Positions 13,768 to 53,169 are shown, counted from the first letter of the stretch. The stretch: DNA of 56,873 bases from Chiloscyllium plagiosum (GCF_004010195.1 NC_057718.1:49992575-50049447); one strand, 5' to 3'. Translations and numbers: made by a program. Notes: generated by a model not told the origin, from the sequence alone.

Positions 13768-13985
13768 GGTCAGAAGTCATATGATTGCTGACAACATGAT
13801 GCTAGGTTATAATCCAACAGGTTTATTTGAAATCACAACTTTAAGAACGCTGCTCCTTTGTCACTTGATGAAGGAGCAGTGCTCTGAAAGCTAGTGATTT
13901 CAAATAAACCTGTTATACTATAACTTGGTGTCATGTGACTTCTGAACATGTCCACCCCAGTTCAACATTGGCACCTCTACAGCAT
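13768..13985 (+). mobile_element. Fold-back Penelope-like terminal fragment (subfamily C) with hammerhead motif
   Basis: Diverged inverted repeat centred near 13862; ttgatgaaggagcagtgctctgaaagcta (13865-13893); same tail as 49954-50057. Confidence 0.75.
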
Positions 13986-14766
13986 ATTTTAAGAAATATA
14001 TAAAATAATAACGAAAAATTTAAACAATACAAAATGACAAAAACTTGTGCAAAGTGACATTATCACATCCCCACTTTTTTTGTTGCGTGTTATTAAAGGG
14101 TCAAATGTCTCTTTTCCAGTATTTTGAGTAGTTTCATAGAGCCTTATAATTTCTTTGTAACAGAATCCGATAGCTGACTGTTGCTATCTACCCAGTTTCA
14201 GCAGTTCAATTTTCAGATGTCCAGCATCTACTTTAAAGCTGCAATTATCAATCCTCAGTTTTGTTTTGCATTCATGCATTTCAAAGAAATTACATTATTC
14301 CATCATCATTTATTATTGATGCAGCAATTTGTACTGGATTTGTTTTTAGAATCTCTTTCAATATTTTCACTAAGAAAATGTTATACCTACTGCCTCGACA
14401 AAAAATAAGAGTTTCTGCCACTAAGGTACTTTTTACTACTCTTCTAATGTTTTGAACTTTCAAACCTAAAGGCAACATTTATCCTCTTTGCTCAAAAGAA
14501 AGATTATAGACCCCCTGCATTTAATGCTACCACATAGATTTATCTAAGAAGCATCATCAAAAACAATAGGTTTCACATACTTAGTATCTCCCAATGATGG
14601 AAATTACTTACACAATACTCCATTTTTAATTTTTTTCCAAAAAAATTTTCTGCCTTGGAATTTTGCATTGCCGTACTCAACTCTTAAAATCTCAAAACTG
14701 GCACCTAGCCTCATTTGTACTCCCAGTGAATTTAACTGTCCTTTACAATTCTTGCTCTCAGTTTTG

Positions 14767-14949
14767 CAGGTCAGGCAGCATCCAGGGAACAGGAGATTCG
14801 ACGTTTCGGGCACAGGCCCTTCTTCAGGAAGAAGGGCCTGTGCCCGAAACGTCGAATCTCCTGTTCCCTGGATGCTGCCTGACCTGCTGTGCTGTTCCAG
14901 CAATAAAGTTTCAACTTTGATCTCCAGCATCTGCAGACCTCACTTTCTC
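14767..14949. mobile_element. Fold-back PLE terminal insertion (subfamily A) with perfect 60-bp-arm palindrome and hammerhead motif
   Basis: Arms 14766-14825 and 14828-14887 are exact reverse complements with a 2-nt spacer; minus strand ctgaagaagggcctgtgcccgaaacgtc; TSD cttgctctcagttttg at 14751-14766 and 14950-14965. Confidence 0.9.
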
Positions 14950-15593
14950 CTTGCTCTCAGTTTTGAAAACCAATGTATCTTTTTTCTGAGGCCCTACTAC
15001 CTGTAAGTTACTAATTGCAATGTGGCTAACTTGTTTTAAAAGGAAGATTGCTGATACATAGCAACGCTTATTCCAATCTGCCTGATTTCCAATCCAATGT
15101 AAGTAAAAGTCTCTGCAGTCTGACTGTCAATTTTGAATTCTGTTTTCAGCTTATTTATGAAAATAGTTTTTAATTCACAGCTCTAATCCTCCAAAACATC
15201 ATCTAAGTGTATCATAAAGATGTCTGAAAGCTGCACTCCCTTCCTCCAATTTATGGGATAACCTGGCAATTCAGACAACACAATTTTAATAAGATGGATA
15301 TTACTGAGAAGTATCAAACTCTGGAGGCAGCTTTTGGGCCATATCAATTTACCTTGCAGACTGAGCTGTGTTTGCTGATTTTCTTGAAGGCAAAGGAACA
15401 GTTCTCCTTCAAGCTGATCACACTTTAATATCAATTGATCTATATTCCCAAGGATTTGTTCTAACGGAACCAAAGAAATCTTCAAAATTGTTTTCCCTGA
15501 AACTATTCCAACCTTGGTGTTTAGTCTTTCTTTAAAACCTTGGGTTAATAGCCTACCTTTAGGCACATAAATCCAATCAGGAGACACCAGGAA

Positions 15594-15830
15594 TCATAGG
15601 TTCTCGACAGCATAGAAGGTGACCATTCAACCTATTAAATCCACACTGACTCTCTGAAGAACTTCCCACCCAGATTAAGACACCCTCTCCATAACCCCAC
15701 ATTTACCATGGCTAACTCACCTATCCAACGCATCCCTGGAGACTACAGACAATTTAGCATGGCCAATCCACCTGGCCCGCACATCTTTGGACTGTGGGAG
15801 GAAAACAGAGCACCCAGAGGAATCCCACGC
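15594..15830 (-). mobile_element. HE1-like SINE (5'-truncated)
   Basis: aatttagcatggccaatccacc..cacatctttggactgtgggagg core matches copies at 32150-32449 and 51794-52125. Confidence 0.85.
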
Positions 15831-16518
15831 ATTTCATCGTTGCTGTACCATTCCTTGGAATAACTTGTGTACTGCTGACAGAACGTGAAACATTATCTGA
15901 CCCAGCATGATGTAAAGAATCTGGCCCTGGGATTTCATAACATCATTGTCTTTGGATATCAGCAAGCTGCTGAACTTAAATATTTCAATAGCCAATATTT
16001 TCCTTATTTTGACATTCTGACTGTTTCCTTAAGGATCTTCGATAAATCACCTTCTAAATAGCTCAAATCAGAATACATTATAGGTTTCATTTTCACAGTT
16101 GTCAGTGAGTCAATTACATGATTAGTCTTAGAACAATTTTATGAGTTTGGTCTTAAAACTTGAGAAAATACCTTATCCAGCACAAAAGGATTTCTTATTG
16201 CCTTGTCCTATACTTAACTGGGCACTGACTGAACTTTTATCAGTTCTTTGCTGCTTTGCTTCTTGAAGTTCATCCATTTGTTTTACAGGAGAGAAAGAAC
16301 AAAGGTGTTTGAAGGTGAAAAATGTAAAGAGAGTATGATCTGCTTCTAAGAAATTTGAAATTGGCAACGTGTAAGGAATTACTTTTTCCCCTTCCACTGA
16401 AAATATATGGTCAGAGAATTTGGTAATTTTAGACACACCCGTGTTTTATCAGTGTATTTTTGACAGAAATATTCATGATATCATTACTGTATCATAGCAT
16501 GTGTATAAAGGCTTCATG

Positions 16519-16703
16519 GAGGAGAAAGTGAGATCTGCAGATGCTGGAGATCAGAGCTGGAAATGTGTTGCTGGAAAAGCGCAGCAGGTCAGGCAGCATC
16601 CAGGGAACAGGAGAATCGACGTTTCGGGCATAAGCCCTTCTTCAGGCTTATGCCCAAAACGTCGATTCTCCTGTTCCCTGGATGCTGCCTGACCTGCTGC
16701 GCT
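16519..16703 (-). mobile_element. Fold-back PLE terminal insertion (subfamily A) with hammerhead motif
   Basis: Inverted arms about 16578-16636 and 16645-16703; minus ctgaagaagggcttatgcccgaaacgtc; 15-bp TSD tataaaggcttcatg at 16504-16518 and 16704-16718. Confidence 0.9.
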
Positions 16704-16997
16704 TATAAAGGCTTCATGCTCCATCTTAATCTGGTATTATTTGGAGCATGACATGCTACTAAAAGCATATTAGTGAATTGTAATTTTATTTCTGTATAAT
16801 AGCTAGTGGTCATAATGCTCTGTTGGATTCTTTGAAACCACAATGAGTGTGCTTAGTTTCATGTTTAACGAGGGATAATAAAAGCATTGCCTCAATGGGT
16901 AAAATACCCTTTTGGAGTAAAAATCACATCAGTCAACTATGTCATTTCCTGGCAGGAACAGAGGCGTGGAAAAACTAAAATTGGATTAGAAAGCATA

Positions 16998-17554
16998 CAG
17001 GTAGTTCTCCCATAACACTGTAGTTGCGTTCCAGTGAAAATCTCGCATAATAGAAAATCGCTTCATAGAAGAAAAGGAACTATAGGAAAAATGGGGTTGG
17101 GGCACCAGCAAAACATATCACTCACAAATCACCCAAAGGTCAACGCAATGTATGGCACAGCCTGAATGAAGGTTGAAATCATATTTAATAATGAAACAAA
17201 AGGAAATTTAACACAGTACATTTTAAAAATTTAAGAAAGCTGCTCTCTTTACAATACCTCTCACAGAAAGCTGCTCTGTCAGCAGCTGACATTAGCCCAT
17301 GTGCAGATTAGCATAAATACTGGCACCAACATTGTGCATGCGCCGAACGGTGCAGACACCAGCACATGCACGGAATAGCTCAGAAATTTCGGCGTGAATA
17401 TTGGTTCACAGAAGAAAGCCCACGAACCAATCCCCGCTGGGATTGCGCTATTGTCAATGGAGGTATGTGTTCTTGAAAATAGCGTTCCCTCATTCTTCAG
17501 TGACATTATAGCTAAATCGTGCAGCCAAAACATGCATAATCCCAGAATTGCTTG
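16998..17554. mobile_element. Probable Tigger/pogo-type (Tc1-mariner) non-autonomous DNA transposon
   Basis: TA-flanked imperfect terminal inverted repeats: ta|caggtagttct ... agaattgcttg|ta. Confidence 0.5.
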
Positions 17555-17865
17555 TACTACCATCTTTATACCAACATCGATTTTGGCTGGCCATTCAAAT
17601 AGGCAGTTACCCGATACAACAGGAGTCTCTTTACTGTATACAATCAGGATCCTGTGATGTAGGCAGCTCGTTATTGGAATTTTGTTGGTTAACAGAGCAG
17701 CTTCATCAATGGGAACACTTGGCCTAACAACAGACTGTTTGGAAAATTCCAGAACATGAAACCAATTGGAATGCTATTTGTAGTGACACATGGGAATTGC
17801 ATAAGGATTTCACAGTTAAATAAGTCCTCTAGTTGTTTTGGTAGTTTTGGGGAAATCAATCATTT

Positions 17866-18050
17866 ATAAGAACATCAGAACATAAGAACTAGGAGCAACA
17901 GTAGGCAATTCAGCCCTTCGAGTCCGCTCACTATTTACTATGATCGTGGCTGATTTCACCTCGGCCTCTACTGCATTTTGTTAAATTGACTAATTAAAAA
18001 TCTGTCTATCTTCTCCTTAAATTTACTCAGTGTCTTGGCATTAACCATAC
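17866..18050 (-). mobile_element. CR1 LINE 3' tail fragment
   Basis: Antisense short tandem tail ataagaacatcagaacataagaac followed by aggagcaacagtaggcaattcagccc. Confidence 0.65.
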
Positions 18051-19159
18051 TCAACCACAGAATCACAGTTCGGTCCTTAATTATTGCTCACTTGTTGCTG
18101 AATAACTGACAGTAAAAGCATTGAATGGAATTGCACAAGCCCCCTTGCTGATGACACGTGTCCAATCTCTCCCCACCACCAGGCCACTTTGCCACAAGTG
18201 CCACCTGATTAAACCACTTATGCGACCAATTAAGGGCCTCCTTTCACCTCATGGACATTTTACCGGCATGCAGGGGAAGCTGGTGGTCTCTCAGTGGGTT
18301 TCAAGTGGCCATCCATTTTGGAGATCCCATGGTCCATGGGGAGGCTACAGCACCCACCCTCAGCTGTCAGTTCCTTCAACCACTCTTCAAGCATCCCTGG
18401 CTCTTGGTGTAGCCTCAAATGGCACTGTTGAGGAAGCGGAGCCAACAGTCCTTTGATTACACAAGCAGTTCTTGAGGATGGGCTGTTGATTTTAATAGTG
18501 AGATTAGCCCCAGTGTTATCCACTTAATTGACCACGACACAGAATGTCTCCCCCAGGTATCTCAGCAGTACTTACACTGCTGAGAATTCATCTCATTCTT
18601 TCACAATGTTAAACCTCCTCAAAACTTTAAACACTTTTGTTTGTTTGTCTTAACCTTTTCAGCTGCATTGAGTACATTCCTACTATTGCATGTCTCTCCA
18701 TACAGCCATAAATCCACAAGTCTCCTATTCTCTGGATCTAATATCCTTTCCATAATAGGTGTCAGAAGCTGTATATATTGCTCCAACACTATCTGAATCT
18801 GATTAAGCTCTGTCTTGGTTTTTATTTCAGTGCCTGCCTTGTGAAGAATCCAATTGACATTTTTATGGCACTTTTGGTTAAGCTGACTTTAGTGTTCATT
18901 TTCTCTTTATAGGTATCTCTGATGCTGCACTCATCTAGATGATCATTTATCTTGTTTCTGCACAGTCTGTCTCCAGATATTTGAAATCTCTAATTATTAT
19001 AGCTTTTATATTTCTGGAAATCTCTGATTTAAAAAAAAATCCTTCTGGCCCTTTGCATTTAATTGTCAGTCCATGGACAACAAATATTGTTACATACACT
19101 CTTGAAATACAGACTACACATTGTGATCAAATGTTTTCATTCTGTATCAGAAGAATAAG

Positions 19160-20962: not shown

Positions 20963-21095
20963 TTACCTGAAGAAGGGCTCATGCCCGAAACGTCGATAGA
21001 TTCCTGAAGAAGGGCTCATGCCCGAAATGTCGATTCTCCTGCTCCTTGGATGCTGCCTGACCTGCTGCGTTTTTCCAGCAACACATTTTCAGCTA
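20963..21095 (+). mobile_element. Short PLE terminal insertion (subfamily A) with two tandem hammerhead motifs
   Basis: ctgaagaagggctcatgcccgaaacgtc (20967-20994) and ctgaagaagggctcatgcccgaaatgtc (21004-21031); 14-bp TSD aggtactaaagtac at 20949-20962 and 21096-21109. Confidence 0.9.
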
Positions 21096-23300: not shown

Positions 23301-25579
23301 ATGTTATACTGTCCTTCTATGCATTTTATGTCAGTGTCACTTCTTCCACGATTGATAGTCCTGTTTCTCATTCTGAGGTGCTGGCTAGCTTTAAGTGATA
23401 CTTACCGCTCACAATAGAGACTCCCTTGCTGATTCCCTCTGTTAAGGTTGGGTAACCTGAAATAATTAAAATGAAAGGTCACAAAGTTGGCATATTGTCT
23501 GCACTTCAAACAGAGGTGGAAGCAAATTTCACTTTGCAACCTCCCATGTTCATGAATGACTATGTGCAAGCCTTGGAACTTGTGAAAGAATGTTGGATTA
23601 ATACTTGATGCTGAAAAAAAAGCATTGTGGGGAGAAAGCAGAGCAGTAGGATTAGTCTTGCATTGTTTTAGTCAATGAACTCATATATAATGGGTTGAAA
23701 GGCCACATTCTGTGCTAGAAGTTTCTTTAATTTTATGATTGAAATACAACACAGACTGCAGTAAACTAGAGACTATGTGGAAATTTCTACCACCCATCAT
23801 AACTTTGTTTCATAATTTTACACAGAACATGATCAAATAATTGAGGGAACAGCTCGTAATTTGTTTGGAGAAAGTTAAATTCTAGCCTTATGCCTTGTTC
23901 AAATCCTTGGCAGGTTCAGTGTTTCACAAACCACATACACACATACATCAGCCCAGTTTAAAGTCTGTTTGGATAACCATCATTTTCATTGTATTGTCAT
24001 AGAAAAGGAATTTCAGTTCATAATGATCTACAGGAAGGATAATTACTACTTTGCCTCTGGAAAAACAAGTTGTCCTCCCCAAACAATCCACTCATTTTGC
24101 ACTAACAATGAACACCACAATTAGATGATTAGCATTTATAAAAGCAGATTAGACTTTTCAAACTTAAGCATATGCAGCTTTTTAGATCAAGCATTTGCTT
24201 TGATAGGTGAAGTAACAGTATTGAGTACAGTGTATTTTTTTTTTACCAATTTAGTGTAATAAAGACTTGATTATCGCATTAAATTCTATTAATGACAAAT
24301 TGCAATTCATAACACATTATAATTGCATCTGTTCCTTGGGGACCTTGGGGACACTGTATCATTCCCCCAGAATCATATTTAACATTTCAGATTTATTCAC
24401 AGAACATCAGCGATAATAGGATATTAAGACACACCTGCCACATGCTTTCCCACAATAGAACTTGGGACCTCAACAGGGAATTATCTTTCCTTCTATCCAT
24501 CTTCCATATATTGCCAAACAAACCACTTTACCTTTTGCTTGTGAAATATGCACTTACATCAACAGTTACATGTGGGGAATTCATAACATCAAAACACTGG
24601 GCTCCTGGCCAATAGAATGTTGTGATCAAGGCTACAGCTTATCAAAAAGTGCCTGACAAGAGAAACTGATAAAAAATAATACAGTCTAGCATAACTGTCA
24701 TTGTTCTGTGGACACCTCAATTCATTTAAATTAATGTCACTAATTTTTATTGGTAACTTCATTAATCCATCTAGACAGTGGAGCATTAGGAACGAAGAAC
24801 AATTTTTTTTTTTATAAAATGCACGATAATAGGAGAAAATTACATTAAGGCTCTACCTCAACAAATCTTCACTTAAATGTTTTTTCCCATATTTACTTTA
24901 CCTGTCTTAAACACAGGTGATTTCACCTGCTAGAATATATATCCTGTCAATTTCTCAGACACTTAAATAAAGGATGCCTTGAAGTAGCAAGTTATAATAT
25001 AACCAACAATTGTATCCCAGCACTTTTAAGTAAAACAAGAAGAGACATTTTGTAAATTCTTCAATGTTAAGGAAAGATGACAGAGTTTTCACAGTGAGAT
25101 GAAGGTTCTGAAATGCTGTTCACTTTATCAATGAGGGGAAATTTACACTCAACCATTTACTGATAAATAAAATTGAGGTTTATTTGAGTTTTTTCAGATA
25201 TGGATTACGTACTCCATGCAGCAACTATCTCACTGGGTTGTTTTGCCAAAATTGTTTCCTCAACCTCTCATACTTGGACGTCTATTAAGATTCTGCCCCA
25301 ATGTCAAAAAAAGAAACAACAATATCGTCACATGAATAGTTCAACAGATTGAAAGCATTCTTTCAAAAACATGATGAATGTTCAAGCAAGAAATTTAAAT
25401 GTGGGTGGGGGAGTTATAAAAAAGGCATTTTATTCTCACTAGTCTGGCAAGGCTCCAGTTCTTCGCAAGACAGATGAGAAATCACATGGTCGAAAAACTT
25501 GAATGTCTAACTCCTGTTTTCTCAGTGCTACTGGCATAACTTGGCTTCCTAAATAGCATCTGCAGTGTGCGTATCCAAG

Positions 25580-25692
25580 GCAAAAGTGAGGACTGCAGAT
25601 GCTGGAAATTAGAGTCAAGATTAGAGCTGTGCTGGAAATGCACGCGGCAGGTCAGGCAGCATCTGAGAAACAGGAAAATCGACGTTTTGAGT
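25580..25692 (-). mobile_element. Diverged PLE terminal fragment (subfamily A)
   Basis: aaaagtgaggactgcagatgctgg...caggtcaggcagcatc...atcgacgtttt; ends inside the hammerhead motif. Confidence 0.75.
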
Positions 25693-30099: not shown

Positions 30100-32140
30100 C
30101 ATTGAAGGTAACTGTATGCAGAGATTCTAAGACAAGATATCTTATCTCGAGGCCTACAGGCTCAGGCTCCAGTTCCATGTGTTCTGATATCACTGTAACA
30201 CAGATACTTTCATACATGTTTAATAAATATACTTTCAGTGAAAGAAGTATATTTACTCAACCTTTTACTCTTCAATTTCCTCAAGTTCTTGTATTCTACA
30301 TCTCCTTAACATTTAATCTTAACAAGTAACATTCAATCATGAATATTTAGCTCTTTTGGTTCCAACTGTGTCCACTGCATAGGTCTCCTTTTCTTGAGGA
30401 ATTAATTTCCAACACCATTCTCTGTTCTCATGGAGCATGTGTAGGACAAATGTGCTTTCTTGTCATTTCCTTGGAGGGACAAACGTTAGTGGATTGCATA
30501 GGCATTTTCTGACCACTCTGGTCTTTGATTTGTGCCACTCACAAAGATTTAAATGTCACAGTATTACAAACCAATGAGGGAAAAACTGCAGAAGACCCCA
30601 GTATTCGAAAGATCATAGCCACTTGCTGTCTGATCTGGAGATGAATATAAAAGTATGTGAATGGAAAGAAAGAGCATTGTGATTGCAACACCAGAAGTGA
30701 GGAACTGAAGACTTCTTCACTATTCGCAGGGTCAGAATTCCTCTTTCTTTAGATATTGTTATCACTCCAGCATTTGTGTTGCTGTGAAGCTGCTGAAGTG
30801 CAGGCAAAGAGAGACTCTACAATAGGAGTGTAACATCATGGGCAACAGAATAAATGACCAGAACATAATCAATAGGAAATTCACATGTAGTATTACTATC
30901 TGAAGATCTACTTGAATGATCAACCTGACTCTGCAGTTGATAGCTGACATAAATAAGGGAATGAAGGTTTTTATTCTCCCTTGCAAGATTTTATCCAAGT
31001 CGTCATCATTCATTAACTGCAGAAGAAAGATTTCTTCAACTAATTATTCACTGTGATCTTGGTGTTCTTAATATTTTTGTAACAGTAAGTCAATACATCT
31101 CTACGGTTTACCAATTGTTGCAAAACGACTAGTTGTATAAGTGCAAGTTTTCTTGTAAATCTTCTGCAATCTTCTCATTTTCAATCTTCAAGTCTTGATT
31201 ATATAATATGATTGCTAAATGCTGAACTTTTATTTTCGTTGGGTCACTGAGTTTTCCAGCAACACATATTTAAGCGCTGAAAGAAAACTTATTGTGTTTC
31301 TATGGCTGATGGGGTTGCCTTGCAAATTTCAGCTATCATTTATGCAGATCCATAATTATTGTCTGTTACATATTGACACAATCCAATTTGGACTGAAGGA
31401 TTTTTTTTTTTCTCTCAACAACACAATTAGTAAGCTAATTCATTTTGAATTTCTTTCCATTCACATACTTTTATATTCATCTCCAGATCAGACAGCAAGT
31501 AGCTATGATCTTTCGAGTACTGGGGTTCTTCTGCAGTTTTTCCCTCATTGGTTTGCAATGCTGTGACATTTAAATCTTTGTGAGTGGCACAAATCAAACA
31601 CCAGATAGTCAGAAAATGCCTATGCAGTCCCCCAATGTTTGTCCCTCCAAGGAAATGACAAGAAAGCACATTTGCCCTACACATGCTCCATGAGAACAGA
31701 GAATTTTGTTCGAAATTAATGCGTTTTATCTGAAGATTGAAGTTTTTGTTAAAAACGTCAAACTCCTATTGATGCATGATTATAAAGGTGTTTGCATACA
31801 GTTGGCTGCTACAAATACAGGCTTTCATCAACCATCCTGACTGAAGCTTCAGTTATCTCAAATTTCTTTCAAAGCTCTGAGGATGTTTTCCTGTATGACT
31901 GAACATCTTTCTTCCTCCATCAATCTGAATATTTCAGATTTTAGGGTCACTTTATTGGGAGGTTTTGATGCTTCACTTGCTTTCATTAGTGATTCAATGA
32001 GTAGAAGGTTTTGTTCTGGCTATCCAGCGGTTGTTCACTCTGGGAATAACTCCTTCACCGAACTCAGCAGCTGCTGTTGTATCAGGTCTATGCTAGCTTC
32101 TGTGTAATAGTCAACACATTTATTTCCTCTTCATCTCCTG
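30100..32140 (-). pseudogene. Degenerate coding-like island containing an inverted duplication
   Basis: Minus read-through e.g. YTEASIDLIQQQLLSSVKELFPE*...LLIESLMKASEASKPPNKVTLKSEIFRLMEEERCSVIQENILRALKEI*; ORF 30762-31013. Confidence 0.4.
30401..31720. repeat. Inverted duplication of about 270 bp of unique sequence (arms 30401-30671 and 31450-31720)
   Basis: Direct alignment of the reverse complement, e.g. ctctgttctcatggagcatgtgtagg vs cctacacatgctccatgagaacagag, with scattered mismatches. Confidence 0.95.
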
Positions 32141-32149
32141 CAGGAAATT

Positions 32150-34932: not shown

Positions 34933-35132
34933 CTTTTGGCTCATGTCCATACCAGTCAAAAATAACCACCTAACTGTTGTGGTTCTGTTCGCCGAGCTGG
35001 AAGTTTTTGTTGCAAACGTTTCGTCCCCTGGCCTTTTGGCACATGTCCATACCAGTCAAAAATAACGACCTAACTGTTGTGGTTCTGTTCGCCGAGCTGG
35101 AAGTTTTTGTTGCAAACGTTTCGTCCCCTGGC
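34933..35132. repeat. Tandem duplication, 2 x 100 bp, spanning a PLE-flank junction
   Basis: 34933-35032 and 35033-35132 differ at two positions. Confidence 0.95.
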
Positions 35133-35374
35133 TAGGCAACATCATCAGTGCTTGGGAGCCTCCTGCGAAGCGCTTCTTTGATGTTTCCTCCAGTGTTTAT
35201 AGTGGTCTGTCCCTGCCGCTTCCGGTTGTCAGTTTCAGCTGTCCGCTGTAGTGGTTGGTATATTGGGTCCAGGTCAATGTGTTTGTTGATGGAGTTTGTG
35301 GATGAATGCCATGCCTCTAGGAATTCCCTGGCTGTTCTCTGTCTGGCTTGCCCTATGATAGTAGTGTTGTCCCA
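34976..35374 (-). mobile_element. Penelope-like element 3' fragment (subfamily B): end of endonuclease ORF plus hammerhead motif
   Basis: ORF 35132-35452 WDNTTIIGQARQRTAREFLEAWHS..SINKH is a PLE C-terminus (RE.LE motif); minus ctgatgatgttgcctagccaggggacgaaacgtt at 35115-35148. Confidence 0.88.
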
Positions 35375-35399
35375 CTCAGTGGCCATGAGTTTCAAAGTT

Positions 35400-36940: not shown

Positions 36941-36944
36941 CAAG

Positions 36945-38375: not shown

Positions 38376-38847
38376 GAAAAAGTTTTTGTTGCAAACCTTT
38401 CGTCCCCTGGCTGGGCGACATCATCAGTGCTTGGGAGCCTCCTGTGAAGCGCTTCTTTGATGTTTCCTCCGGTGTTTATAGTGGTCTGTTCCTGCCGCTT
38501 CCGGTTGTCAGTTTCTGCTGTCCGCTGTAGTCGTTGGTTTATTGGGTCCAGGTCGATGTGTTTGTTGATGGAGTTTGTGGATGAATGCCATGACTCTAGG
38601 AGTTCCCTGGCTGTTCTCTGTCTGGCTTGCCCTATGATAGTAGTGTTGTCCCAGAGGAACACCTAGCGGCAGGGACAGACCACTATAAACACCGGAGGAA
38701 ACATCAAAGAAGCGCTTCGCAGGAGGCTCCCAAGCACTGATGATGTCGCCTAGCCAGGGGACGAAACGTTTGCAACAAAAACTTCCAGCTCGGCGAATAG
38801 AACCACAACAACGAGCACTCGAGCTACAAATCTTCGCACAAACTTTG
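38376..38847. mobile_element. Inverted pair of Penelope-like 3' fragments (subfamily B) with hammerhead motifs
   Basis: Minus copy 38376-38653 and plus copy about 38665-38847; intact plus motif ctgatgatgtcgcctagccaggggacgaaacgtt at 38737-38770. Confidence 0.88.
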
Positions 38848-39050
38848 AACCACCTAACTATTTCAATGTATTGCCTTGCCAGGTGCTGATTCCTCCTCGG
38901 TAAGTAAATAGGAGACACAGTGCTAGGAAACAGTCGAGCTACAAATCTTCGCACAAACTTTGAACCACCTAACTATTTCAATGTATTGCCTTGCCAGGTG
39001 CTGATTCCTCCTCGGTAAGTAAATAGGAGACACAGTGCTGAGGAAACAGT
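38820..39050. repeat. Tandem duplication, about 2 x 115 bp, spanning a PLE-flank junction
   Basis: 38820-38934 repeated at 38935-39050 with a 1-nt indel. Confidence 0.95.
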
Positions 39051-43253: not shown

Positions 43254-43470
43254 GAGAGTGTGGTGCTGAAAAAGCACAGCCAGTCAGGCAGCATCCGAGG
43301 AACAGGAGAATCGACGTTTCAGGCATAAGCCCTTCACAGATTGAAGGTGAGCCTCATCCTGGATGAAAGGCTTATGCCCGAAACATTGATCCTCCTGCTC
43401 CTTGGATGCTGCCTGACCTGCTGTGCTTTTCCAGCACCACACTTTCGACTGCAGTCCTCATTTTCTCCCT
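43254..43470. mobile_element. Diverged fold-back PLE terminal insertion (subfamily A)
   Basis: Inverted arms around a short spacer near 43340-43360, degenerate hammerhead motifs; TSD gttaaatagagtc at 43241-43253 and 43475-43487. Confidence 0.85.
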
Positions 43471-43721: not shown

Positions 43722-43750
43722 GGAGAAAGTGAGGACTGCAGATGCTGGAG
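43722..43750 (-). mobile_element. 29-bp PLE 3'-terminal micro-insertion
   Basis: ggagaaagtgaggactgcagatgctggag between 15-bp direct repeats ttataacactaacta (43707-43721, 43751-43765). Confidence 0.85.
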
Positions 43751-43989: not shown

Positions 43990-45660
43990 ATAATCTCCAA
44001 ATCTTAGTGTGAGGTATTCAATGGGTTCCAGATGCAGATGCCCATCGGTTTTAACATTTCAGACAATCGCAGCATGCTCAGTGCATCAGGATTTTCAAAA
44101 AGTCCAAAGTGCATCTTTCAGGGTCCACCAGATCTATGACTATCTGGAGATGGGAAGGTCTGTGTCATTGATATTTCATTTAGGTCTGTTATATGACTGT
44201 TACCTCAATTTTTTTTTCTCAAAATGCTCTTCTTCCTACCATCCTTTCATCTGGAAATTTAAAATATGATGAAACTTGCTCCCCCACCCACAAGATAGCG
44301 GCGGTAAAGTTGATGTAAATTTTCTTTTGGTAAACATGCTAAAAATGAAATTAATTAAGATATCAATGATAAAGTTCGTAATTTCCATAATCATAACTCC
44401 CCTTTTATCTGTTTCGTTCCTACTATTCCGAGCAATGTCCAGAAGCTGATGCTTGATGTTTATTAAAACAACTCTTCTTAGAAGAGAACTTGGGCTTTCT
44501 CTCAAAAGTTCCTTGTTTGATGTTTTGCTGAGTGGCACATGATGGGTTTTAGCTCTTGTGCTGTTTAGTTGTATGTAGGTCAATAGAACATATTTTAATT
44601 CCTTTTGGTTGGTGGATGAAACCCACTGAAACAGTAAAAGTTCAGTGCTTGTAGCACTCAAAACAATGATTTTTTTTTCTTTTTGTGTTTGTTCCCCAAA
44701 ATCTTTCATCTATACAAACACCATTTAGGATAACCATGCCAACCACTCAAGATTCATCAGCATTGAACAAGGCTTCTTCACCTGCACAGTTTCTCATGAA
44801 TTTGGACAGAACTGTTGTCAAAACATTCTTTGCTAAAGTGATACATCCAGGCACCCTCTTGCCATGAGGCTTTTAGTCATGAAAGTTGTTTTGTTTCCAA
44901 GATTGTGATTAAGCTTGTTTTACCCTCTGAGAAGGAAGCCAAGTGCCATCTTCATTTGAAGTGTCCTCCAGAACAAAATGTTGCTGCTGCATCTATTGAA
45001 TTTAGAATAGTGCAGTCCTGCTTTTGCTTTCTCAATTCTTATTCAGTTTATTTTCTTTTGTGATCAGAATCTCACTTGAACATAATGGCTGTCTAGTTTT
45101 GGAGGAGTTAAAAATGAAATGTCAAAGTGCTTCACCGTTTCTCTATTCTTTTTAAACCAACTCCTCTCTTTAATCATAGGGGAGATGTTCAATTTTCACA
45201 CCAGGTCATAATTTCAGTTTCAACCTGCAATTATTCTCATGCAGTTGCAAGCAGAATTATGTGTCATGTATATTTATTTTCTTGGAATTGACAGACTAGT
45301 CAGTAGTTTCAGATTTTTACTGGGTTTTGGAAGCATAAAGATTTAGTGCCAAATTAAGTGCCAATTATAACTGTCAGAATGATTTTAATGCAATGCAGGA
45401 TCATTCACAATGCCTATCAGACTAGTCATCAGCCTATGAATCCTTTTACTTCTTCTGCTGTTCTCCATGGGAAGAATTTGATTATATAAACGCCTAACAA
45501 TGACAGATGCCAGCTCAGTATGCTGTTGAGGAATTTGCTGATAAAAGCATGGCTGTTTTGAGTGCACAATACAGCAATGCGTTCAACACACGGACTGTAT
45601 TGAAGTGAAACTGAAGATATCTGCTTTCAAGGAATGTGCGTCATGTTAAGATCACATGAT
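43990..45660 (-). pseudogene. Degenerate coding-like island
   Basis: ORFs 44236-44709 and 45385-45567 plus read-through (TELASVIVRRLYNQIL, ITLAKNVLTTVLSKF, ITNFIIDILINFIFS) show repeated amphipathic helices; many stops. Confidence 0.4.
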
Positions 45661-46299
45661 TCCAGCAGATTAACACAGACATTTGTGCGTGGTTGGATTT
45701 GGGTATAGGAAGGGTTTGGAGGGATATGGGCTGGATGCGAGCAGGTGGGACTTGATTAGGTTGGGATATCTGGTCGGCATGGACGGGTTGGACCAAAGGG
45801 TCTGTTTCCATCTGTACATCGCTATGACTCTATGACATCCCCTCCTTTTGATCCAAAAAATGGTAGCAATAATGGCAGCCATTATCATGTACATTTTTAG
45901 TTATCCCTAGTTAATAACTAAAACACAGGATTCTCATGGTTTAGCATTTCATTATTTCCATTATTTTTTGTTATTTTAGATTTTATTGTCACATGTACTC
46001 AAGTACAGGGATACAGGAGTATAGTGAAATGTGTACAGTGTTGTCATTCTTGGTAACATCTTAGGTACAAAGAATGTTTTGACAACAGTTCTGTCCAAAT
46101 TCATGAGAAACTGTGCAGGTGAAGAAGCCTTGTTCAATGCTGATGAATCTTGAGTCATTGGCATGGTTATCCTAAAAGGTGTTTATATAGATGAAAGATT
46201 TTGGGGAGCAAACACAAAAGGAAAAAAAAAATCATTGTTTTGAGTGCTACAACCAATTAACTTTTACTGTTTCAGTGGGTTTCATCCACAAACCAAAGG
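44601..46299. repeat. Inverted duplication of about 230 bp (arms 44601-44832 and 46068-46299)
   Basis: ORF track shows the same peptide TQDSSALNKASSPAQFLMNLDRTVVKTFF on opposite strands; direct nucleotide alignment. Confidence 0.95.
45690..45836 (+). mobile_element. CR1 LINE 3' tail
   Basis: gaagggtttggagggatatggg...ctatgactctatgac, as at 7545-7674. Confidence 0.85.
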
Positions 46300-46710: not shown

Positions 46711-47099
46711 CATTTCAGTGATACAGGTGATAGGCAGCTGCTTCCTTCATCTGGTTTTTCTACATATCACCTATTTCACCATCAGTCTCAGCATTTGCAT
46801 TGCACAGATTGTCCTTAAATCATGCCGGTCACGTAGCAGTATGTCTGTATTTTCTTGCTATTGACTATTCATTTGTGTGTTGTTTATCACCAGGGAATGT
46901 TGTTTCTGTATCATTTGTTGTTGCTATGATAGCCATTATTATCTTATTTCTGCTGTTGATTTGCTGTGAGCCTCTGGGTCTGATGATTGCTGTATGATCT
47001 GTGTAGGTGGTGCACTCTTTCCTTCCTGATGAGTCAACTACAGTTGAGGAAAGGTCTCTATAGTTGGCTACATGTGTCTGTCATTGAGATAATATTTCT

Positions 47100-47490
47100 A
47101 TACGTCTTCCATCAGGCAAATGATGCAGAAGCCTGAACACACATACCTGAAAATGTGTTGCTGGAAAAGCGCAGCAGGTCAGGCAGCATCCAAGGAACAG
47201 GAGAATCGACGTTTCGGGCATAAACCCTTCTTCAGGAATCACACATACCAGCAGGTTCCGGAACAGCTTCTTCCCAGCCGTTATTAGATTATGAATGGGC
47301 TCACAAGTCTCAAACAATGCTGATCTTGCTAATGTTGCTCTCGCCTAGCAGACGCCCTCTAACCTGTATGCCTCTGTCTAAGTATTTTTACAGCTTCTGA
47401 TCTGTACATCCTTGTTCCCCCACACAGCTCTTAAACAATACTTTTCACTGTACTTCGGTACTCGTGACAATCAATCAATCAATAAATATC
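47100..47490 (+). mobile_element. Rex1/Babar-like LINE 3' end
   Basis: LPSGK*CRSLNTHT | SRFRNSFFPAVIRL C-terminal motif split by a PLE insertion; tail cttttcactgtac..gtgacaatcaatcaatcaa. Confidence 0.75.
47148..47239 (-). mobile_element. Short PLE terminal insertion (subfamily A) with hammerhead motif
   Basis: Minus attcctgaagaagggtttatgcccgaaacgtc; 10-bp TSD cacacatacc at 47138-47147 and 47240-47249. Confidence 0.9.
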
Positions 47491-47783
47491 ATTCAATTCC
47501 ACCATTTTCGATCAAAGTGGCAACTGTTTCATACAGGTCCTAAGGTGCCACTTGAGCTAGATTTTGCTGACATTGCTGAATGTTTGTACCCCAACTGGGT
47601 CTTCAGGACTCAGCTCTGGCAATGGTTTAGCAGATAGCTTTGCAGTTTGCCTTGTATATATCTGTGTGGTAGTAGCTATTTAGTGATTTTCTCAGCTTTT
47701 CCATTTGACTGGGAACATTGTGGAGATGATGTGATGTGAGATAGTCATAGAGGTTTACAGCAGCAGGCCCTTCAGCCCACCTT

Positions 47784-49172
47784 GGAGAAAGTGAGGACTG
47801 CAAATGCTGGAGAGTCAGAGTCGAAAAGTATGGCACTGGAAAAGCACAGCAGGTCAGGCAGTGATGTTATTGGGTGTGTGTGTCCCAGAGATGTTCTCGG
47901 AAAAGTACCGCGAGTTGGCATCTTGTTTCCCCAATGTAGAAGAGACTTCATCGAGAGCAACGGGCACAGTAGATGAGGTGTGCTGATGTACAGGAAAATC
48001 TCTGCCAGATGTGAAAAGATCCTTTGAAGCTTTGGATGGAGGTGAAGGGGGAGGTGTGTGCTCAGGTTTTACACCTCTTGTGTTGTCAAGGGAAGTTGCC
48101 GGGAGTGGAGGGTGGGTTGAATGGGGGTGTGGACTTAATGAGAGATGTAGATAGGAGTGCGAAATGTATCTCTGATGGTGGGGTCTAATTGCAGGTGATG
48201 GAAATAGTGGAGGATAATGCGTAATATCCAGAGATTAGTGGGATGGAAGCTGAGGACCAGGAGGATTCCATCCTTGTTACATTTGAAGGGGTGGACTTCA
48301 AGGGTGGAGGTGCAGGAAGTGGAGGAGATGCACTGAAGGACATTGTTGATCATGTGGGAGGAGAGATTGTGGTCCTTGAAATAGGGGGCCATCTGAGATG
48401 TTCCGGAGTGGAATTGCTCCTCGTGGGAACAGATACGGTGGAGGCGGAGAAATTGGGAGTAAGGGATCGTGTTTTTATGAGAGGGGGTGGGAGGAGGTGT
48501 AGACAGGCAGTTATGGAAGTCGGTGGGTATCTAATAGATGTCCATGTTGAGTCAGATGCCGGAGAGGTCCAGGAAGGGGAGGTGGCATCTGAGATGGCCC
48601 AGGTGAACTTAAGGTTAGGATGGAAGGTGTTAGTGAAGTTGCTGAACTGTTCCACTTCCTGGACACCTCCCTCCCCTTCCTGGACCTCTCCGTCACCAGC
48701 TCCACTGACCGACTTAACATGGACATCTATTTCAAACCCATTCACTCCCACAGCTACATCCTCCTAACTCCTCCCAATCCACACCCCCATTCCCCATAAA
48801 AACGCGATTCTTTACTCCCAATTCCTCCGTCTTTGCCGTATCTGCTCCCAAGAGGAGCTATTCCACTTAAGGACATCCCAGATAACCTCCTGTTTCAAGG
48901 AACGCAATTTTCCCTCCTGTGTGATCAACCATGCCCTCGAACGCATCTCCTCCACTTCCTGCACCTCCGCCCTTGAACCCCACCTGTCCAATTGCAACAG
49001 GGATAGAAGCCCCCAGTCTTCATTTTCCATCCCACTAATCTCTGGTACAGAGAGTATCTTCTGCCATTTCTGCCACTTACAATCAGAGCCCAGCACCAGG
49101 GATATATTTCCCTTCCCACCCCTATCTGGTTCCAGAGAGAGACCATTCCCTCCGTGACTCTTTCATTAGGTC
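47784..49172. mobile_element. Rearranged Penelope-like element: GIY-YIG endonuclease and RT C-terminal region on minus (47863-48660), inverted RT C-terminal region on plus (48661-49172)
   Basis: Minus translation FSCTSAHLIYCARCSR*SLFYIGETR...FREH (GIY-YIG with Cys motif); EQFSNFTNTFHPNLKFTW; IPYSQFLRL.RICS-like on plus. Confidence 0.9.
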
Positions 49173-49174
49173 TA

Positions 49175-50057
49175 AGCATGTGGGTGTGTGTGTGTGTGCA
49201 CGGGGTGGGTATGAGTGTCTGTGAGAGAGTGTGTGTATATGTATGTGTGTGAGTATGAGTCTAATCGGGTTTTAGTCTGTGAGTGGGTACGTGTGTGAAT
49301 GTGGAAGTGTGTATGTAAGTGTATGAGAGAAAGCTTGTGTATGAGAGAGGATCTGTATGAGTGTATGGGTCTGTAGGAGTGTGTGTGTTTGTGTGTGTTT
49401 GTGTGTGTGTGTATGTCATGCAGTGGAATCACCTGTAGTGTGACATGAACCGAAGATCCAGTTGAGGCCATCCCCATGGGTACTGAACTTAGCTATCAGC
49501 CTCTGCTTGGCCACTTTGCATTGTTGCCTGTCCCTCACACACACACCCTCATGCACACATACACATATATTTTTATAGGGTGAATTTGTACTTGCAGAAT
49601 TACATTTTATTTTGCTCAAAAACTGCATGAATCCATGTACGATTCTGTAAATCCCTTTTTTAGATTAGAATCAGTCTGAACATTGTGGCACAGACAGTCT
49701 CACGCAGGGCAGCTCACAACATAAATGTATTATCTGGGCCGACATGGCTCCTATTGTTAAAGTTCACTTGATTATGTAACTTTAGAAAGTTCTGGGATTT
49801 ACATGTGAAAGAACTGAAACCAACATGCCCATTCTAAAGGATGAGAGACTTAACAAACAATCCAGGTCTTTTTCAATATATAATTTCAATTACATCACAC
49901 TGTAAACCTTTGCTATAAATTCTGTGTCTTGTGATCTTATACTCCACAACTATCTGATGAAGGAGCAGTGTTCCAAAACCTATTGGAGTATAACCTGGTG
50001 TTGTATGATTTTTAACTTTGTACACCCCAGTCCAACACCAGCATCTCCAAATCATCA
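49175..50057. mobile_element. Penelope-like 3' region (subfamily C) with (TG)n/(CA)n tracts and a degenerate hammerhead motif
   Basis: Imperfect TG microsatellite at 49178-49415; ctgatgaaggagcagtgttccaaaa at 49954; tail accccagtccaacaccagcatctcc shared with 13950-13985. Confidence 0.75.
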
Positions 50058-50317
50058 ATTCCATAAGTTAAGGAATGCCTTATCATGAAAGATGATGATT
50101 TAATGGTGGGAGAATTCATAATCTTGGCAGTCCAGATTGAATCTGCCATGTTTGATTTGACAACGTCACACAGAATGTACCCGCCGAATCCTCTCTGCAG
50201 ATCCAGCTTGTCCAACTATCTCAAATGCAAGAGTTACCAGAACTGAAAATTTAGCAATCTCATCAACAATTGCCCCAGTATGGTCAGCTTGCTCAAAAAT
50301 TGCTGAAATTATGGACA

Positions 50318-50830
50318 TTTTTGATTTGATTTGATTTCTTATTGTCATATGTATCAAGGTACAATGAATAGTATTGTATTGTATGCTGACCAGACAAAAT
50401 ACAGAAGTATATCAGGATAATAGAACAGAACATAAAGCATGGTATTACAGCTGAAGAGAAGGTGCAGAGAAAGATCATCTCTAATATTTGAGAGGTCTCT
50501 CAAAGTCTACCAACAGCATGGAAGAAGTTCTTGAATTTGTTAGTATCTGTTTTCAAATGTTCGTAATTTCTGTCCAGTAAAAGAGGGTGGAAGAGAGTAT
50601 AGCTGGGGTGGGAGGGGCCTTTAATTATGTTGGCTGCTTTCCCGAGGCAGCAAGAAGGATAGACACAGCCAATGGAAGGAAGGTTGGTTTGCATGATGGA
50701 CTGAGCTGTATTCACAACTCTCTGTAATGTTTTGTAGTCTTGGGCAGAGCAGTTGCCATACCAAGTTATGATGCATCCAGATAGGATGTTTTCTATGGTG
50801 CATCTATAAAAATTGGTAAGAGTTATTTTG
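50318..50830 (-). mobile_element. Rex1/Babar-like LINE 3' fragment
   Basis: ORF 50500-50715 AQSIMQTNLPSI...KAANIIKGPSHP..LF; antisense tail tttgatttgattt..ttattgtcatatgta. Confidence 0.8.
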
Positions 50831-51793
50831 GATAGTGCCCATCAATTTACATTACCAGGTCCATCTCAAGAAATAGGGTAATTTATGCTCATATTTGAAT
50901 TACATTGCAGAGCTTTGTAGGTCATGGAGTTATCTTGAGTGTGCTATTAGTTACATGTACAACCAATTTTTAATAATCAGTCAGGCTCATTACATGTTTT
51001 TTTTAAGCTGGCTGGAAGTAACATGCATACATTGTGCAGGGCTCTGCTTTTGCTACCAAGATGATTTGTTAAAGTCATATATCTTTTCTGAATAGGCATG
51101 AACAAACATTTTAAAACTATAAAATAAACCAACTGTTCGCACACAGAACTTGGTGGGAGTCATTTATGGACAACTCAAAGGCACAAAACATAATAGGCAG
51201 GAGGTGCAAATCAGCAATATTTTTTATTGTCGTATTTGTCTCAATGCCTTGAGATTTCAGCTGGTCTGGAATCAAGGTTGACGGCTTCCTCCCAAGTCTG
51301 TCATATTGTGCCAGTACGTCTTGTCACTCTATTTTGCTGATGGGACAGGATATTCCTGGAGTCAGTGATAAAGGAATGGAATGTTGGCTGGAACATACAA
51401 GTCAGACATCAGACTATTGCTTAGCTAGTCTGTGGTCAGATGTTAGTTATTAAAACAGCTGTTCTTTTTAGTATAGATGGATGACATGGAATTGTTTTAT
51501 CAAAGCCATAGCTTCAATGTTTGCAAATAATATAATGCTTGAAAATGCAACAAATTGCTCTTTTGATTTTGGCCATAGATGTTAATGAGAAGAATTGATG
51601 AAGCTAGATGTAATTGTGTCTGAATTTAATGCCAAGGTGACTGCTGGGTGGTCCATCTACATTTATTCTGGCAACATTTTGTTGTCATAGTTAATGCAAC
51701 TGAAAGGCTTGCTAGCCATTTCAGAGAGTAGTTAAGAGTCAAACTCACTGGTGTAGATCTGATGCTACATTTAGGCATGCCTAGGTAAAAAAA

Positions 51794-52125
51794 ATCATAG
51801 AATCCCTGCAGTGAGAAAGCAGACCATTTGGCCCATCAAGTGACACCGAGCCTCCAAAGATATATCCACCCAGACCCACTCTCCTTCCTTGCATTTGCCA
51901 TGGCTAATCTACCTAAGCGTGCACATCTCCAGATACCATGGGTAATTTAGCATGGCCAATCCACCTAATCTGCACATATTTGGACTGTGAGAGGAAACTG
52001 GAGTACCTGAAGAAAACCTACACAGACACAGGGAGAATGTGCAAACTCCACACGGTTGCCCAAGTGTGGAATCAAACCAGGGTCCCTGGTGCTGTGAGGC
52101 AGCAGTGCTAATCACTGAGCCACCA
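51794..52125 (-). mobile_element. HE1-like SINE
   Basis: Minus ggtggctcagtgattagc head, B box tggtttgattcc, conserved core and CR1-like tail. Confidence 0.9.
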
Positions 52126-52856
52126 TATTGTTCATCAAAATGTCAGAATTCTTCCCCTAAAGCACATTAATGTTTATTTAATCAAAGTAAACAGTCAACT
52201 TAGTGTCAACAACATAGAAAATTCTTAGTTTAAATGGTGAGTAGTTGTGTGGACATAAAATTAGCTAGCGTACAGGAAGCAAAGTAGTGATAAAATTTGT
52301 TTTGCGATTGGAAGGAAGTCTGCACTGTTTTTCCTCAGGGCTGATTACTAGAACTACTGCTCTTTTTGAGTAGGTTAATCATCTCAGCTTCTAAGCATTG
52401 GTATCTAATAAACTGTCATCATCAGGCAGAGGATCAAATAGTATGTGTGGGTAATAAAAGCCATGTGTGGTGCTGACTGCTGGAATGGCTAACATCTTAT
52501 CATTTCAAAGCTGCACACCATGATCTATTTCGCTAGATGCTGCCAGAGCATGAAGATCTAGAATCTCTTTCAGAGAAACATGTGACAGAAATTGTGCACT
52601 CACCACTCCACGCCCGGCCTTATATGAAGGAGGTGAGCAGTGTGGTCCTGGAAAGGGCTGCTCACACACTCAGACGACTGCCGAGGTCAACTTCTGCTTC
52701 CTTCCAGTGAGAAGCTATCCTATGTCCTGAGCAACAAGTGAGCAGGTCGGTGGCTACAGTTCCCAATGAATCCACATCGAATGCATACGTTGCTTGCCCA
52801 GCAGACCTCCGACAGATAGATGATTCTGATAAACATTAGAAAGATGATGGATATGA

Positions 52857-52985
52857 AAGTTTGTGAGAAGATTTGTAGCTCGGGTGCTCGTTGCTGTGGT
52901 TCTGTTCGCCGAGCTGGAAGTTTTTGTTGCAAACGTTTCGTCCCCTGTCTAGGTGACATCCTCAGTGCTTGGGAGCCTCCTGTGA
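52857..52985 (-). mobile_element. Short PLE terminal insertion (subfamily B) with hammerhead motif
   Basis: Minus gcactgaggatgtcacctagacaggggacgaaacgtttgc; 13-bp TSD atgatggatatga at 52844-52856 and 52986-52998. Confidence 0.9.
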
Positions 52986-53076
52986 ATGATGGATATGATT
53001 TAATTATGGTGAGGGAATATTGCACATTGTCAGTCTTATTTGTATGGATCTAACTTGATCAAGTGGCAGCTTAGGC

Positions 53077-53169
53077 CTGATCAAGGGCTTATGCCCGAAA
53101 CATTGACTCTCCTTCTCCTTGAATGCTGCCTGACCTGCTGTGCTTTTCCAGCACCCCACTATTCGACCC
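53077..53169 (+). mobile_element. Diverged short PLE terminal insertion (subfamily A)
   Basis: ctgatcaagggcttatgcccgaaacatt plus subfamily tail; diverged direct repeat tggcagcttaggcctgatca / tggcaacttaagcctaatca. Confidence 0.75.

Follow-up and report, generated by a model that had tools for sequence, protein, structure and literature searches.

The window analysed here is a 56,873-nt stretch of the Chiloscyllium plagiosum genome (GCF_004010195.1 NC_057718.1:49992575-50049447), with coordinates counted from its first letter. It holds end-pieces of Penelope-like elements (PLEs) with minimal hammerheads, which form families A, B, C and D (Table 1). Judged from sequence, A, C and D appear to be Neptune-type and B Poseidon-type, with C and D assigned by likeness of motif and tail alone. 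A family B window peptide matches the end of P0001, which is an RT protein with a GIY-YIG motif, at 85% identity. In family A, the broken ORF at 47801-48661 matches P0012 and is connected to the A module over a deletion. For A and B, an RT plus C-terminal GIY-YIG ORF is therefore linked to the repeat module, as in endonuclease-positive PLEs, and the inverted or tandem pLTR, optional 30-40 bp tail and TSD of those elements are also present. The CX2-5CxxC linker between RT and endonuclease, described as a feature of the Neptune clade (PMC8557442), is present in P0012 and decayed in the window copy. Placement of A, C and D in the Neptune clade is suggested by this linker (family A only) and by likeness. 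A Pfam search of nine broken window peptides returned 0 families.

Positions are numbered with the C of CTGA (C3) as +1, and cleavage is predicted after +28. The motifs have the core, helix II hairpin, palindromic helix III and short helix I (2-4 bp) of minimal type I hammerheads, for which self-cleavage as a dimer is a predicted property. The metazoan PLE hammerheads described in PMC4209133 are alike in the CUGANGA core, the unpaired base before helix II, the palindromic loopless helix III, the short helix I and the U3-A8 variant. They are also mostly solo motifs or opposite-strand pairs, and a circular or multimeric template was proposed for them in 2014 (Cervera and de la Pena, PMC4209133); the account of the motifs given there includes no mapping of truncation points. 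A hammerhead descriptor scan gave 28 rows in the window and 6-15 sites in shuffles, so isolated matches were left uncounted. Rfam gave no match at the gathering threshold for the window hammerheads. Pattern scans for further copies found 0 in viral contigs; three metagenome loci looked bacterial and were taken as chance, as were nine loci in bacterial genome records, judged by title and not by alignment.

Table 1. Element pieces in the window; end positions are relative to C3 (+1).
Feature	Position	Strand	Structure and ends	TSD
Family A copy	1..211	+	core C at 119; extends at least 118 nt upstream of core; upstream reference	
Family D composite	12861..13117	+	inverted tail (12861-12891), tail, leader, hammerhead unit probably starting about -4	16 bp, 12845-12860/13118-13133
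Family C palindrome	13768..13985	.	centre 13864-13865; arms 13839-13863/13866-13890; long arm to -3..-1, short arm +2..+4	tentative, 11 bp, 2 mismatches
Family A palindrome	14767..14949	.	arms 14766-14825/14828-14887 (100% identity, 2-nt gap); short arm to -3..+1, tail-bearing arm from +3..+6; 3-nt microhomology	16 bp, 14751-14766/14950-14965
Family A palindrome	16519..16703	.	arms 16577-16636/16645-16704 (98% identity, 8-nt gap); tail-bearing arm (- strand) to -1..+2, short arm from +10..+12	15 bp, 16504-16518/16704-16718
Family A partial tandem	20963..21095	+	unit (-3/-1..+31), two extra bases, second unit (-4..+91) from 21000	14 bp, 20949-20962/21096-21109
A-like copy with tail	25578..25690	-	5' end about +18..+22, without core	sought, not found
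Family B (putative Poseidon-type) copy	35075..35375	-	endonuclease C-terminus; core 35148; 5' end about -226	
Family B palindrome	38380..38848	.	arms start -226 and -72; cores 38427 (-), 38737 (+); centre about 38655, away from core	
Older family A (A2) palindrome	43254..43469	.	arms 43250-43336/43364-43450, 27-nt spacer; both arms to about -8	18 bp, 43236-43253/43470-43487
Tail-only insert	43722..43750	-	+97..+126	15 bp
Family A solo insert	47148..47239	-	-4..+91	10 bp, 47138-47147/47240-47249
Broken, probably Neptune-type RT/GIY-YIG ORF	47784..49160	.	fused to A 3' module at +50; inverted arm; inversion centre about 48660, roughly 0.9 kb from 3' end	
Family C copy	49176..50056	.	core 49954	sought, not found
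Family B solo insert	52857..52985	-	core 52965; 5' end -20..-22	13 bp, 52844-52856/52986-52998
Family A2 solo insert	53084..53169	+		20 bp, 53064-53083/53170-53189, 3 mismatches
Family D palindrome	53493..53657	.	one arm to -4..-2, other from +50	16 bp, 2 mismatches
Broken, probably Neptune-type RT fragment	56038..56873	+	runs off window edge	

Known endonuclease-positive PLE units (Neptune, Penelope/Poseidon) are likewise heavily 5'-truncated and form partial tandems, adjacent inverted 5'-truncated copies and head-to-head palindromes, with an optional 30-40 bp tail at one end and TSDs of 10-20 bp (PMC3846280, PMC8557442). The window inserts differ from the units of these accounts (Arkhipova 2013; Craig 2021) in being mostly only 90-220 bp. 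Non-LTR retrozymes are also non-coding, pLTR-derived and equipped with type I hammerheads, and are reported from vertebrates, including one chondrichthyan (Li, Clavereau, Pollet 2026, 10.64898/2026.07.22.740005). They are described as head-to-tail tandems of complete units, whereas the window inserts are dispersed, solo or head-to-head, and have TSDs. The only tandem is the partial one at 20963, and an array of complete hammerhead units is absent from the eight tandem-repeat rows of the window; on this feature the inserts do not fit the definition of a non-LTR retrozyme.

The 5' ends and inversions of the A, C and D insertions cluster at the 5' edge of the hammerhead, as the initial annotation had claimed. 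The counts cover this one window and comprise 14 A, C and D events, with the RT fragment at 56038..56873 left out, and three family B events. The furthest 5' point lies at -8..+8 in 9/14 of the A, C and D insertions, a per-base rate about 39 times that elsewhere (hazard ratio 39, p 7e-8). Family A alone gives 6/10 (ratio 27, p 2e-5), and 5/9 when 53084 is removed (p 2e-4). About 13 windows were open to post hoc choice; a scan test with geometric truncation and mean lengths of 20-1000 nt gave a P of at most 2e-5 for windows 5' of +40 and at most 0.012 for any window. The 3' ends fall at two sites, +91..97 or +125/126.

Recomputed arms uphold the palindrome centres first listed at 14826-14827, 16637-16645, about 13862 (the family C palindrome) and about 43340-43360; 4/9 inversion centres lie away from the core. 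The end at 47239 is indeed at -4 and directly abuts its TSD. The start at 20963 follows a perfect TSD as listed, but the templated match begins only at -1 to -3. An end placed at 53077 belongs to the core edge, but its exact base does not hold, because the TSD at 53064-53083 itself contains core-like letters and fixes the end only to -1..+8. The palindrome at 53493-53657 and the composite at 12861-13117 are core-edge cases beyond the earlier list. In the composite, the hammerhead unit has a U3-A8 variant core at 13019, and its boundary at about -4 is suggested by helix I pairing and not by a known upstream sequence.

Counter-examples among A, C and D are 1-211 (past -118), 25578-25690 (about +20), 43722-43750 (+97), the ORF-bearing 47784-49160 and the family C copy at 49954, which was treated as long since it probably reaches an inversion near 49535, some 420 nt upstream. 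The three family B events all lie away from the core (-226; -226/-72; about -20). The contrast of 0/3 with 9/14 has a Fisher p of 0.08, or 0.21 with the window-edge ORF copy added.

Descent from one pre-truncated master is excluded because the copies differ in TSD, junction and sublineage. A single-master, SINE-like family was also rejected, since a fixed 5' end with shared diagnostic mutations was not found. It is highly improbable that the short copies descend from pre-truncated masters at all. Short copies with an internal promoter could be sources, which is compatible with the preferred model given below; however, 21004 groups by diagnostic letters with the long copy at 119, these letters being absent from the other short copies, and the joints differ from case to case over no fewer than three sublineages of A as well as C and D.

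None of the 14 ends lies at +27..+31, so the breaks avoid the predicted cleavage site as first noted. The inserts do continue past it, but for about 63-98 nt and not up to 150. Since they span the site, an uncleaved template is supported; the multimeric or circular template once proposed with it is not needed, because internal priming near the RNA 5' end gives equal inserts. The mechanism first offered was a stall or strand switch of RT at the ribozyme folded as a monomer. The ends are near the ribozyme, and no element near the core is better paired than stem II (predicted pairing probability about 0.9). However, RT reaches the fold from the 3' side and the fold is unwound by -4, so ends would be expected at +21..+37, where there are 0/14. 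The stem II energies (RNA; A -6.7, B -6.9, C -4.4 and D2 -2.7 kcal/mol) do not track the clustering: B has an equal hairpin without clustering, and C and D have weak hairpins with it. Both hairpins are also far weaker than the complete RNA:cDNA duplex (about -27 kcal/mol with RNA parameters). A stall of this kind is therefore very unlikely, and the mechanism of the initial annotation as a whole is partly supported.

The preferred explanation, with a probability of roughly 0.55, is that most of the Neptune-type inserts are short because RT starts inside the leader and runs off an RNA 5' end predicted to lie just upstream of the core. In the anole PLE (PAc of Anolis carolinensis, Frangieh 2024), RT initiates internally near the ORF start, at two sites bounding the tail; the hammerhead is near the ORF start, uncleaved RNA is the dominant template in vitro and both target strands are extended (PMC11167929). 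By analogy, RT in the window families would start on uncleaved RNA at the two sites that flank the tail, with nicking and extension possible on both target strands. PAc primes inside the ORF, whereas the window sites appear to be in the leader upstream of the ATG; the main-text account of PAc gives no positions of genomic 5' ends (PMC11167929). The location of the hammerhead-tail module in the leader, directly upstream of the ORF start, is suggestive. The leader of the composite at 12861..13117 has an acceptor-like AG together with an ATG (12964) similar to Neptune N-termini, and in comparison with close full-length relatives the best score of the peptide that follows the tail falls on their start methionine; the N-terminal count of 5/69 is inside the shuffled range (0-9). 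On each transcript, priming could thus occur about 100-130 nt downstream of the 5' end. Leader priming would end by run-off at -8..+3, the RNA end being a transcription start or a processed end, and priming in the downstream repeat would account for the less frequent long copies that extend beyond the core. A finished cDNA end may join the target by 2-3 nt of microhomology to give a solo insert, a second cDNA or itself to give a head-to-head palindrome, or another RNA to give a tandem. A weak inverted repeat around the core may set the exact joint.

In 20963-21095 two successive stops of copying fall at one edge (-4, then -3/-1) and each joint has extra bases, which is the expectation for run-off and jump, and 12861-13117 also has an internal joint at about -4. 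R2 template jumping likewise proceeds from the template 5' end with added bases. LINE-1 twin priming produces 5' inversions joined by microhomology, as at the window joints, but it inverts upstream sequence, whereas the window palindromes repeat one sequence in both arms. For an RNA starting at -4, the first 12 nt are unpaired in the minimum-energy fold and the ends lie 5' of all predicted structure. Two B copies have a common, different end near -226, which would fit a family-specific RNA start. Family A has an initiator-like motif with its A at -4, although this is weak at a background of 1.2% per nt. Neither a G at -5 derived from a cap nor a DPE-like motif was kept as start-site evidence, since they do not discriminate. 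Against a single RNA 5' end, the ends spread from -8 to +8 and not over one base. Because helix I of A and D likewise begins at -4, a start site cannot be told apart from a structural cause. In Drosophila virilis the promoter is internal with the start site in the upstream pLTR (PMC2377424; PMC6765202), which speaks for the preferred model. This start, however, precedes by 46 nt a 75-nt intron that runs up to helix I (PMC4209133; PMC2377424) and is therefore not at the hammerhead, which counts against run-off at the core edge.

Sequence reads from outside the window point both ways on run-off, the depth rise, the strand-change joints and the loose-end consensus speaking for it. RNA-read depth is flat from -27 to -8 (222 to 216) and then rises to 306 at -1 and 372 at +9, a step confounded by reference mismatches that clip reads at 138-145, by subfamilies with other upstream sequence that would drop out near -4 and by over-representation of a few loci. 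The 10-to-1 ratio of raw depths on either side of the core exaggerates truncation, as other subfamilies may differ upstream. Contig word depth in X1 and X9 was set aside because it does not measure copy number. Clip piles at places 138-145 were rejected as breakpoints, being an artefact of mismatches to the reference copy. Among the strand-change joints listed, 3/4 have one side at -7, -5 or -4. In the 18 of 507 loose-end rows examined, the consensus follows the element to -4/-5 in 6/6 DNA rows at places 138-140 and is inconsistent between them by -9..-11; at -5 the commonest letter of the DNA rows is the templated C and not the G that a cap would leave. No pile of RNA starts or ends is listed in X21, whose poly(A) single-cell reads are a poor test, and 0 reads of X22 aligned. 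Moreover, no end-to-start RNA joint of circular monomers is listed, a test weakened by core clipping and poly(A) selection.

The inverted repeat centred on the core could also act directly, with the nascent cDNA self-priming on it and no role for an RNA end or RNA fold. Self-priming has been proposed for PLE palindromes (PMC3846280), and cDNA 3' ends are predicted to be self-paired at -10 (0.64), -9 (0.43) and +9/+10 (0.9). The joint at 16641 fits an 8-nt loop and the arms at 14826 have private variants in common, but simple fold-back at the 14826 and 13864 junctions would require a 2-nt loop. Self-pairing is also as strong or stronger at +43, +47, +61 and +66, yet no ends pile up there, and neither the solo inserts at -4 nor the clustering in C and D, whose sequences are different, is explained. 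Sequence-directed fold-back is therefore an improbable general cause. Even less probable is that the GIY-YIG endonuclease cuts the ends during resolution of a DNA intermediate. ATT is preferred by the anole enzyme (PMC11167929) and family A ends at -4 begin with ATT, the tail has been attributed to endonuclease resolution (PMC8557442), and the 5' ends of two inserts coincide with the tail boundary (43750, 12892). However, this preference comes from another clade, the D and C ends are not ATT, and the internal tandem joints at -4 with added bases resemble RT events.

A hammerhead dimer may instead serve as a hand-off scaffold, in which two RNAs pair through the palindromic helix III and a trans helix I (-4..-1 of one RNA facing +29..+32 of its partner). 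At this point RT would stop or switch, and palindromes would arise from two cDNAs held together. The A, C and D ends gather on the 5' strand of helix I, and dimer folding of such motifs is published (PMC4209133). The tandem joint at 20963 links -4 to +31, the partner strand in the dimer, but this is a single event and a 4-nt direct repeat at -4 and +30 explains it equally. At 14826 and 13864 the joints are easier to reconcile with two cDNAs than with a 2-nt loop, and a subfamily site distinguishes the arms of the 43350 palindrome. Against this, helix I is 2-4 bp, family B has an equal dimer design and 0/3 ends at the core (a small sample), hammerhead core mutants leave insertion size unchanged in vitro (PMC11167929) and Naiad PLEs without hammerheads are described as still making inverted structures (PMC8557442). 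It is thus doubtful that the PLE hammerhead acts without cutting, with trans helix I of the dimer fixing RT stop, hand-over and cDNA joining. If true, this would explain the conservation of a barely active ribozyme and give a ribozyme a non-catalytic role in cDNA synthesis.

The clustering refines the known behaviour of PLEs. A description of 5'-end clustering at PLE hammerheads was not found in the open-licence literature, and the accounts in PMC3846280 and PMC8557442 do not, in their treatment of these units, report an accumulation of 5' ends or of inversion centres at the edge of the hammerhead. A 5' pile that is sharp and specific to a family would be a genomic readout of the template RNA end. 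Taken together with the internal priming sites already published, such a pile would account for the flood of hammerhead-headed inserts of 100-130 bp, and the small palindromes would likewise be by-products of leader priming. The finding therefore bears on the PLE copying cycle and on the purpose of the PLE hammerhead.

The 5' ends of the family A, C and D inserts cluster at the hammerhead core. The event set joins the inserts recognized by the initial annotation with all others found by BLAST, misses included, and in 9 of its 14 events the furthest 5' reach is within -8..+8 (+1 is the C of the CTGA core; negative positions are upstream). The other five end at about +20, +97, beyond -118, about -420 (inferred) and about -900. 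An ORF fragment is excluded because its 3' end lies beyond the window; its inclusion gives 9/15. TSDs of 10-20 bp flank most inserts, therefore these are separate events. The per-base rate of ending inside the 17-nt interval exceeds the outside rate by a factor of about 39 (p 7e-8), with about 13 possible intervals for this post hoc choice. Family A alone has 6/10 ends at the core edge (p 2e-5), or 5/9 without insert 53084 (p 2e-4). Clustering also exceeds that of geometric random truncation, with a scan P <= 2e-5 for intervals 5' of +40 and <= 0.012 anywhere.

The four palindrome centres that the initial annotation placed at the core were all found there. The insert end at 53077, also assigned to the core edge, can be positioned only to -1..+8, since its TSD is similar to the core. 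Altogether, 5/9 inversion centres are at a core. Family B has 0/3 events at its own core (Fisher p 0.08, or 0.21 against 9/15). Two copies of family B that lie 3.3 kb apart in different flanking sequence have 5' ends that agree to about 3 nt near -226, which may reflect the start of the B RNA or a local re-copy. A few further 5' ends, those of one insert and one palindrome that consist of tail only, form a second group at the 5' boundary of the tail, where the first of the RT start sites also lies.

Minimal type I hammerhead motifs occur in four repeat families in the window, with cleavage predicted after +28. A broken ORF is joined to family A, and the Neptune Cys linker is present in the closest relative of this ORF. 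From the likeness of motif and tail, families C and D are classed with the Neptune type of Penelope-like element (PLE). The family B repeat adjoins the end of an RT and GIY-YIG protein; we call it Poseidon-type from this protein layout, which lacks the linker motif. The broken ORFs have their nearest proteins in bamboo sharks (Chiloscyllium, Hemiscyllium), with best matches at 80-85% identity for family B and about 60% for the decayed family A ORF, so the window is probably shark-type DNA.

Features of the window by position
Feature	Position	Remarks
ORF, repeated CCHC motifs	4353-4790	presumably zinc-knuckle-like
RT fragments, inverted	5954-10422	presumably LINE-like
Composite, TSD-bounded	12861-13117	both ends lie close together on the element, at about +89/+90; resembles a single round of a unit of some 215 nt, or a full-length unit with a very large deletion inside; U3-A8 core variant of hammerhead; acceptor-like AG upstream of ATG
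Tail-only palindrome	12861-12928	
Tail-only insert	43722-43750	
Inversion centres away from a core	12893, 38655, 48660, 49535	
Tandem insert	20963	
Family B copies, common 5' end	35375, 38654	
Inverted duplication, otherwise unique sequence	30401-31720	272 nt, 94%, 778-nt spacer; PLE ends or clear TSD looked for, not found
Inverted duplication, otherwise unique sequence	44604-46297	230 nt, 95%, 1235-nt spacer; PLE ends or clear TSD looked for, not found
Tandem duplication, near-perfect	34933-35132	100 nt; spans family B copy 3' end and flank
Tandem duplication, near-perfect	38819-39050	115 nt; spans family B copy 3' end and flank
Possible fifth family	47026-47070	single hammerhead-like motif; second copy or TSD not found in window
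ORF fragment	56038-56873	outside the 14 events

A stall of RT at the folded ribozyme had been proposed as the cause. RT reads the RNA from 3' to 5' and reaches the core only after the 3' strand of helix I, after helix III and after stem II, so that a stall at the monomer fold predicts ends at +21..+37. This zone contains 0/14 A/C/D ends, and stem II strength (-6.9 kcal/mol in B vs -6.7 in A, weaker in C and D) is at odds with the clustering; such a stall is very improbable. The predicted GTC cleavage site likewise has 0/14 ends. Trimming of the ends by an endonuclease is also judged very improbable. Descent from pre-truncated masters has little likelihood. The short copy at 21004 and the long copy at 119 have diagnostic letters in common, the copies at 14827, 16645/47235 and 43360/53077 fall into other sublineages, and every insert has its own, different joint; a single pre-truncated master is therefore refuted. 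Fold-back of the cDNA, suggested by predicted self-pairing maxima at -10 and +9/+10, is unlikely; equal maxima at +43, +47, +61 and +66 have no pile of ends.

The preferred reading, with a probability of about 0.55, is that the core-edge ends arise by RT run-off at the RNA 5' end. Insert 3' ends fall at two places, +91..97 and +125/126, resembling the two tail-bounding start sites of Frangieh 2024 (PMC11167929). That paper showed internal RT initiation at these sites, near the ORF start, on an uncleaved RNA template with both target strands extended. In the composite the tail is followed by about 35 nt and then an ATG; the hammerhead-tail module therefore likely forms the leader of the element RNA. 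Compared with close full-length relatives, the peptide from this ATG scores highest at their start methionine, a result that is suggestive only, since N-terminal best matches (5/69) are inside the shuffled range. With priming in such a leader, a copy would reach the RNA 5' end, and stop there, after 100-130 nt. The tandem insert has two stops at one edge with bases added, and its joints are consistent with run-off and jump. One joint connects -4 to +31, its pairing strand in a dimer, as expected if RT were handed off at a dimeric hammerhead; however, a 4-nt direct repeat accounts for it equally well, and hand-off is rather unlikely. A motif resembling an initiator, with its A at -4, lends weak extra support to run-off. 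Against run-off, the ends are scattered across about 16 nt, -4 doubles as the first base of helix I, and no RNA end appeared in the data.

Four sequencing runs were compared with window 1-215 as reference. Matching contigs number 46,625 and 41,690, from two organisms, and matching RNA reads 2,477 in X21 (poly(A) single-cell reads) and 0 in X22, another run. Depth in X21 is flat from -27 to -8 (222 to 216), then 306 at -1 and 372 at +9. Of the four strand-change joints listed, three have a side at -7, -5 or -4 (their orientation is not reported). Among the 18 of 507 loose-end rows listed, the consensus matches the element as far as -4/-5, and the rows disagree by -9..-11. In X21 no accumulation of RNA starts or ends is listed, for which such reads are a weak test. 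These data agree with the window but are semi-quantitative, because reference mismatches clip reads at places 138-145, upstream sequence may differ in other subfamilies and some loci are over-represented among the RNA reads.

Earlier papers describe minimal hammerheads and the dimers they form, together with a proposed circular template (PMC4209133, PMC6765202), an internal promoter (PMC2377424) and, in a 2026 preprint (10.64898/2026.07.22.740005), retrozymes as PLE derivatives. No description of 5'-end clustering at the hammerhead edge was found in the open-access literature. According to PMC8557442 and PMC3846280, PLEs regularly show inverted copies truncated at the 5' end, tails, partial tandems and palindromes arranged head to head. 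The core-edge clustering is real and non-random, and is a variant of known PLE behaviour.
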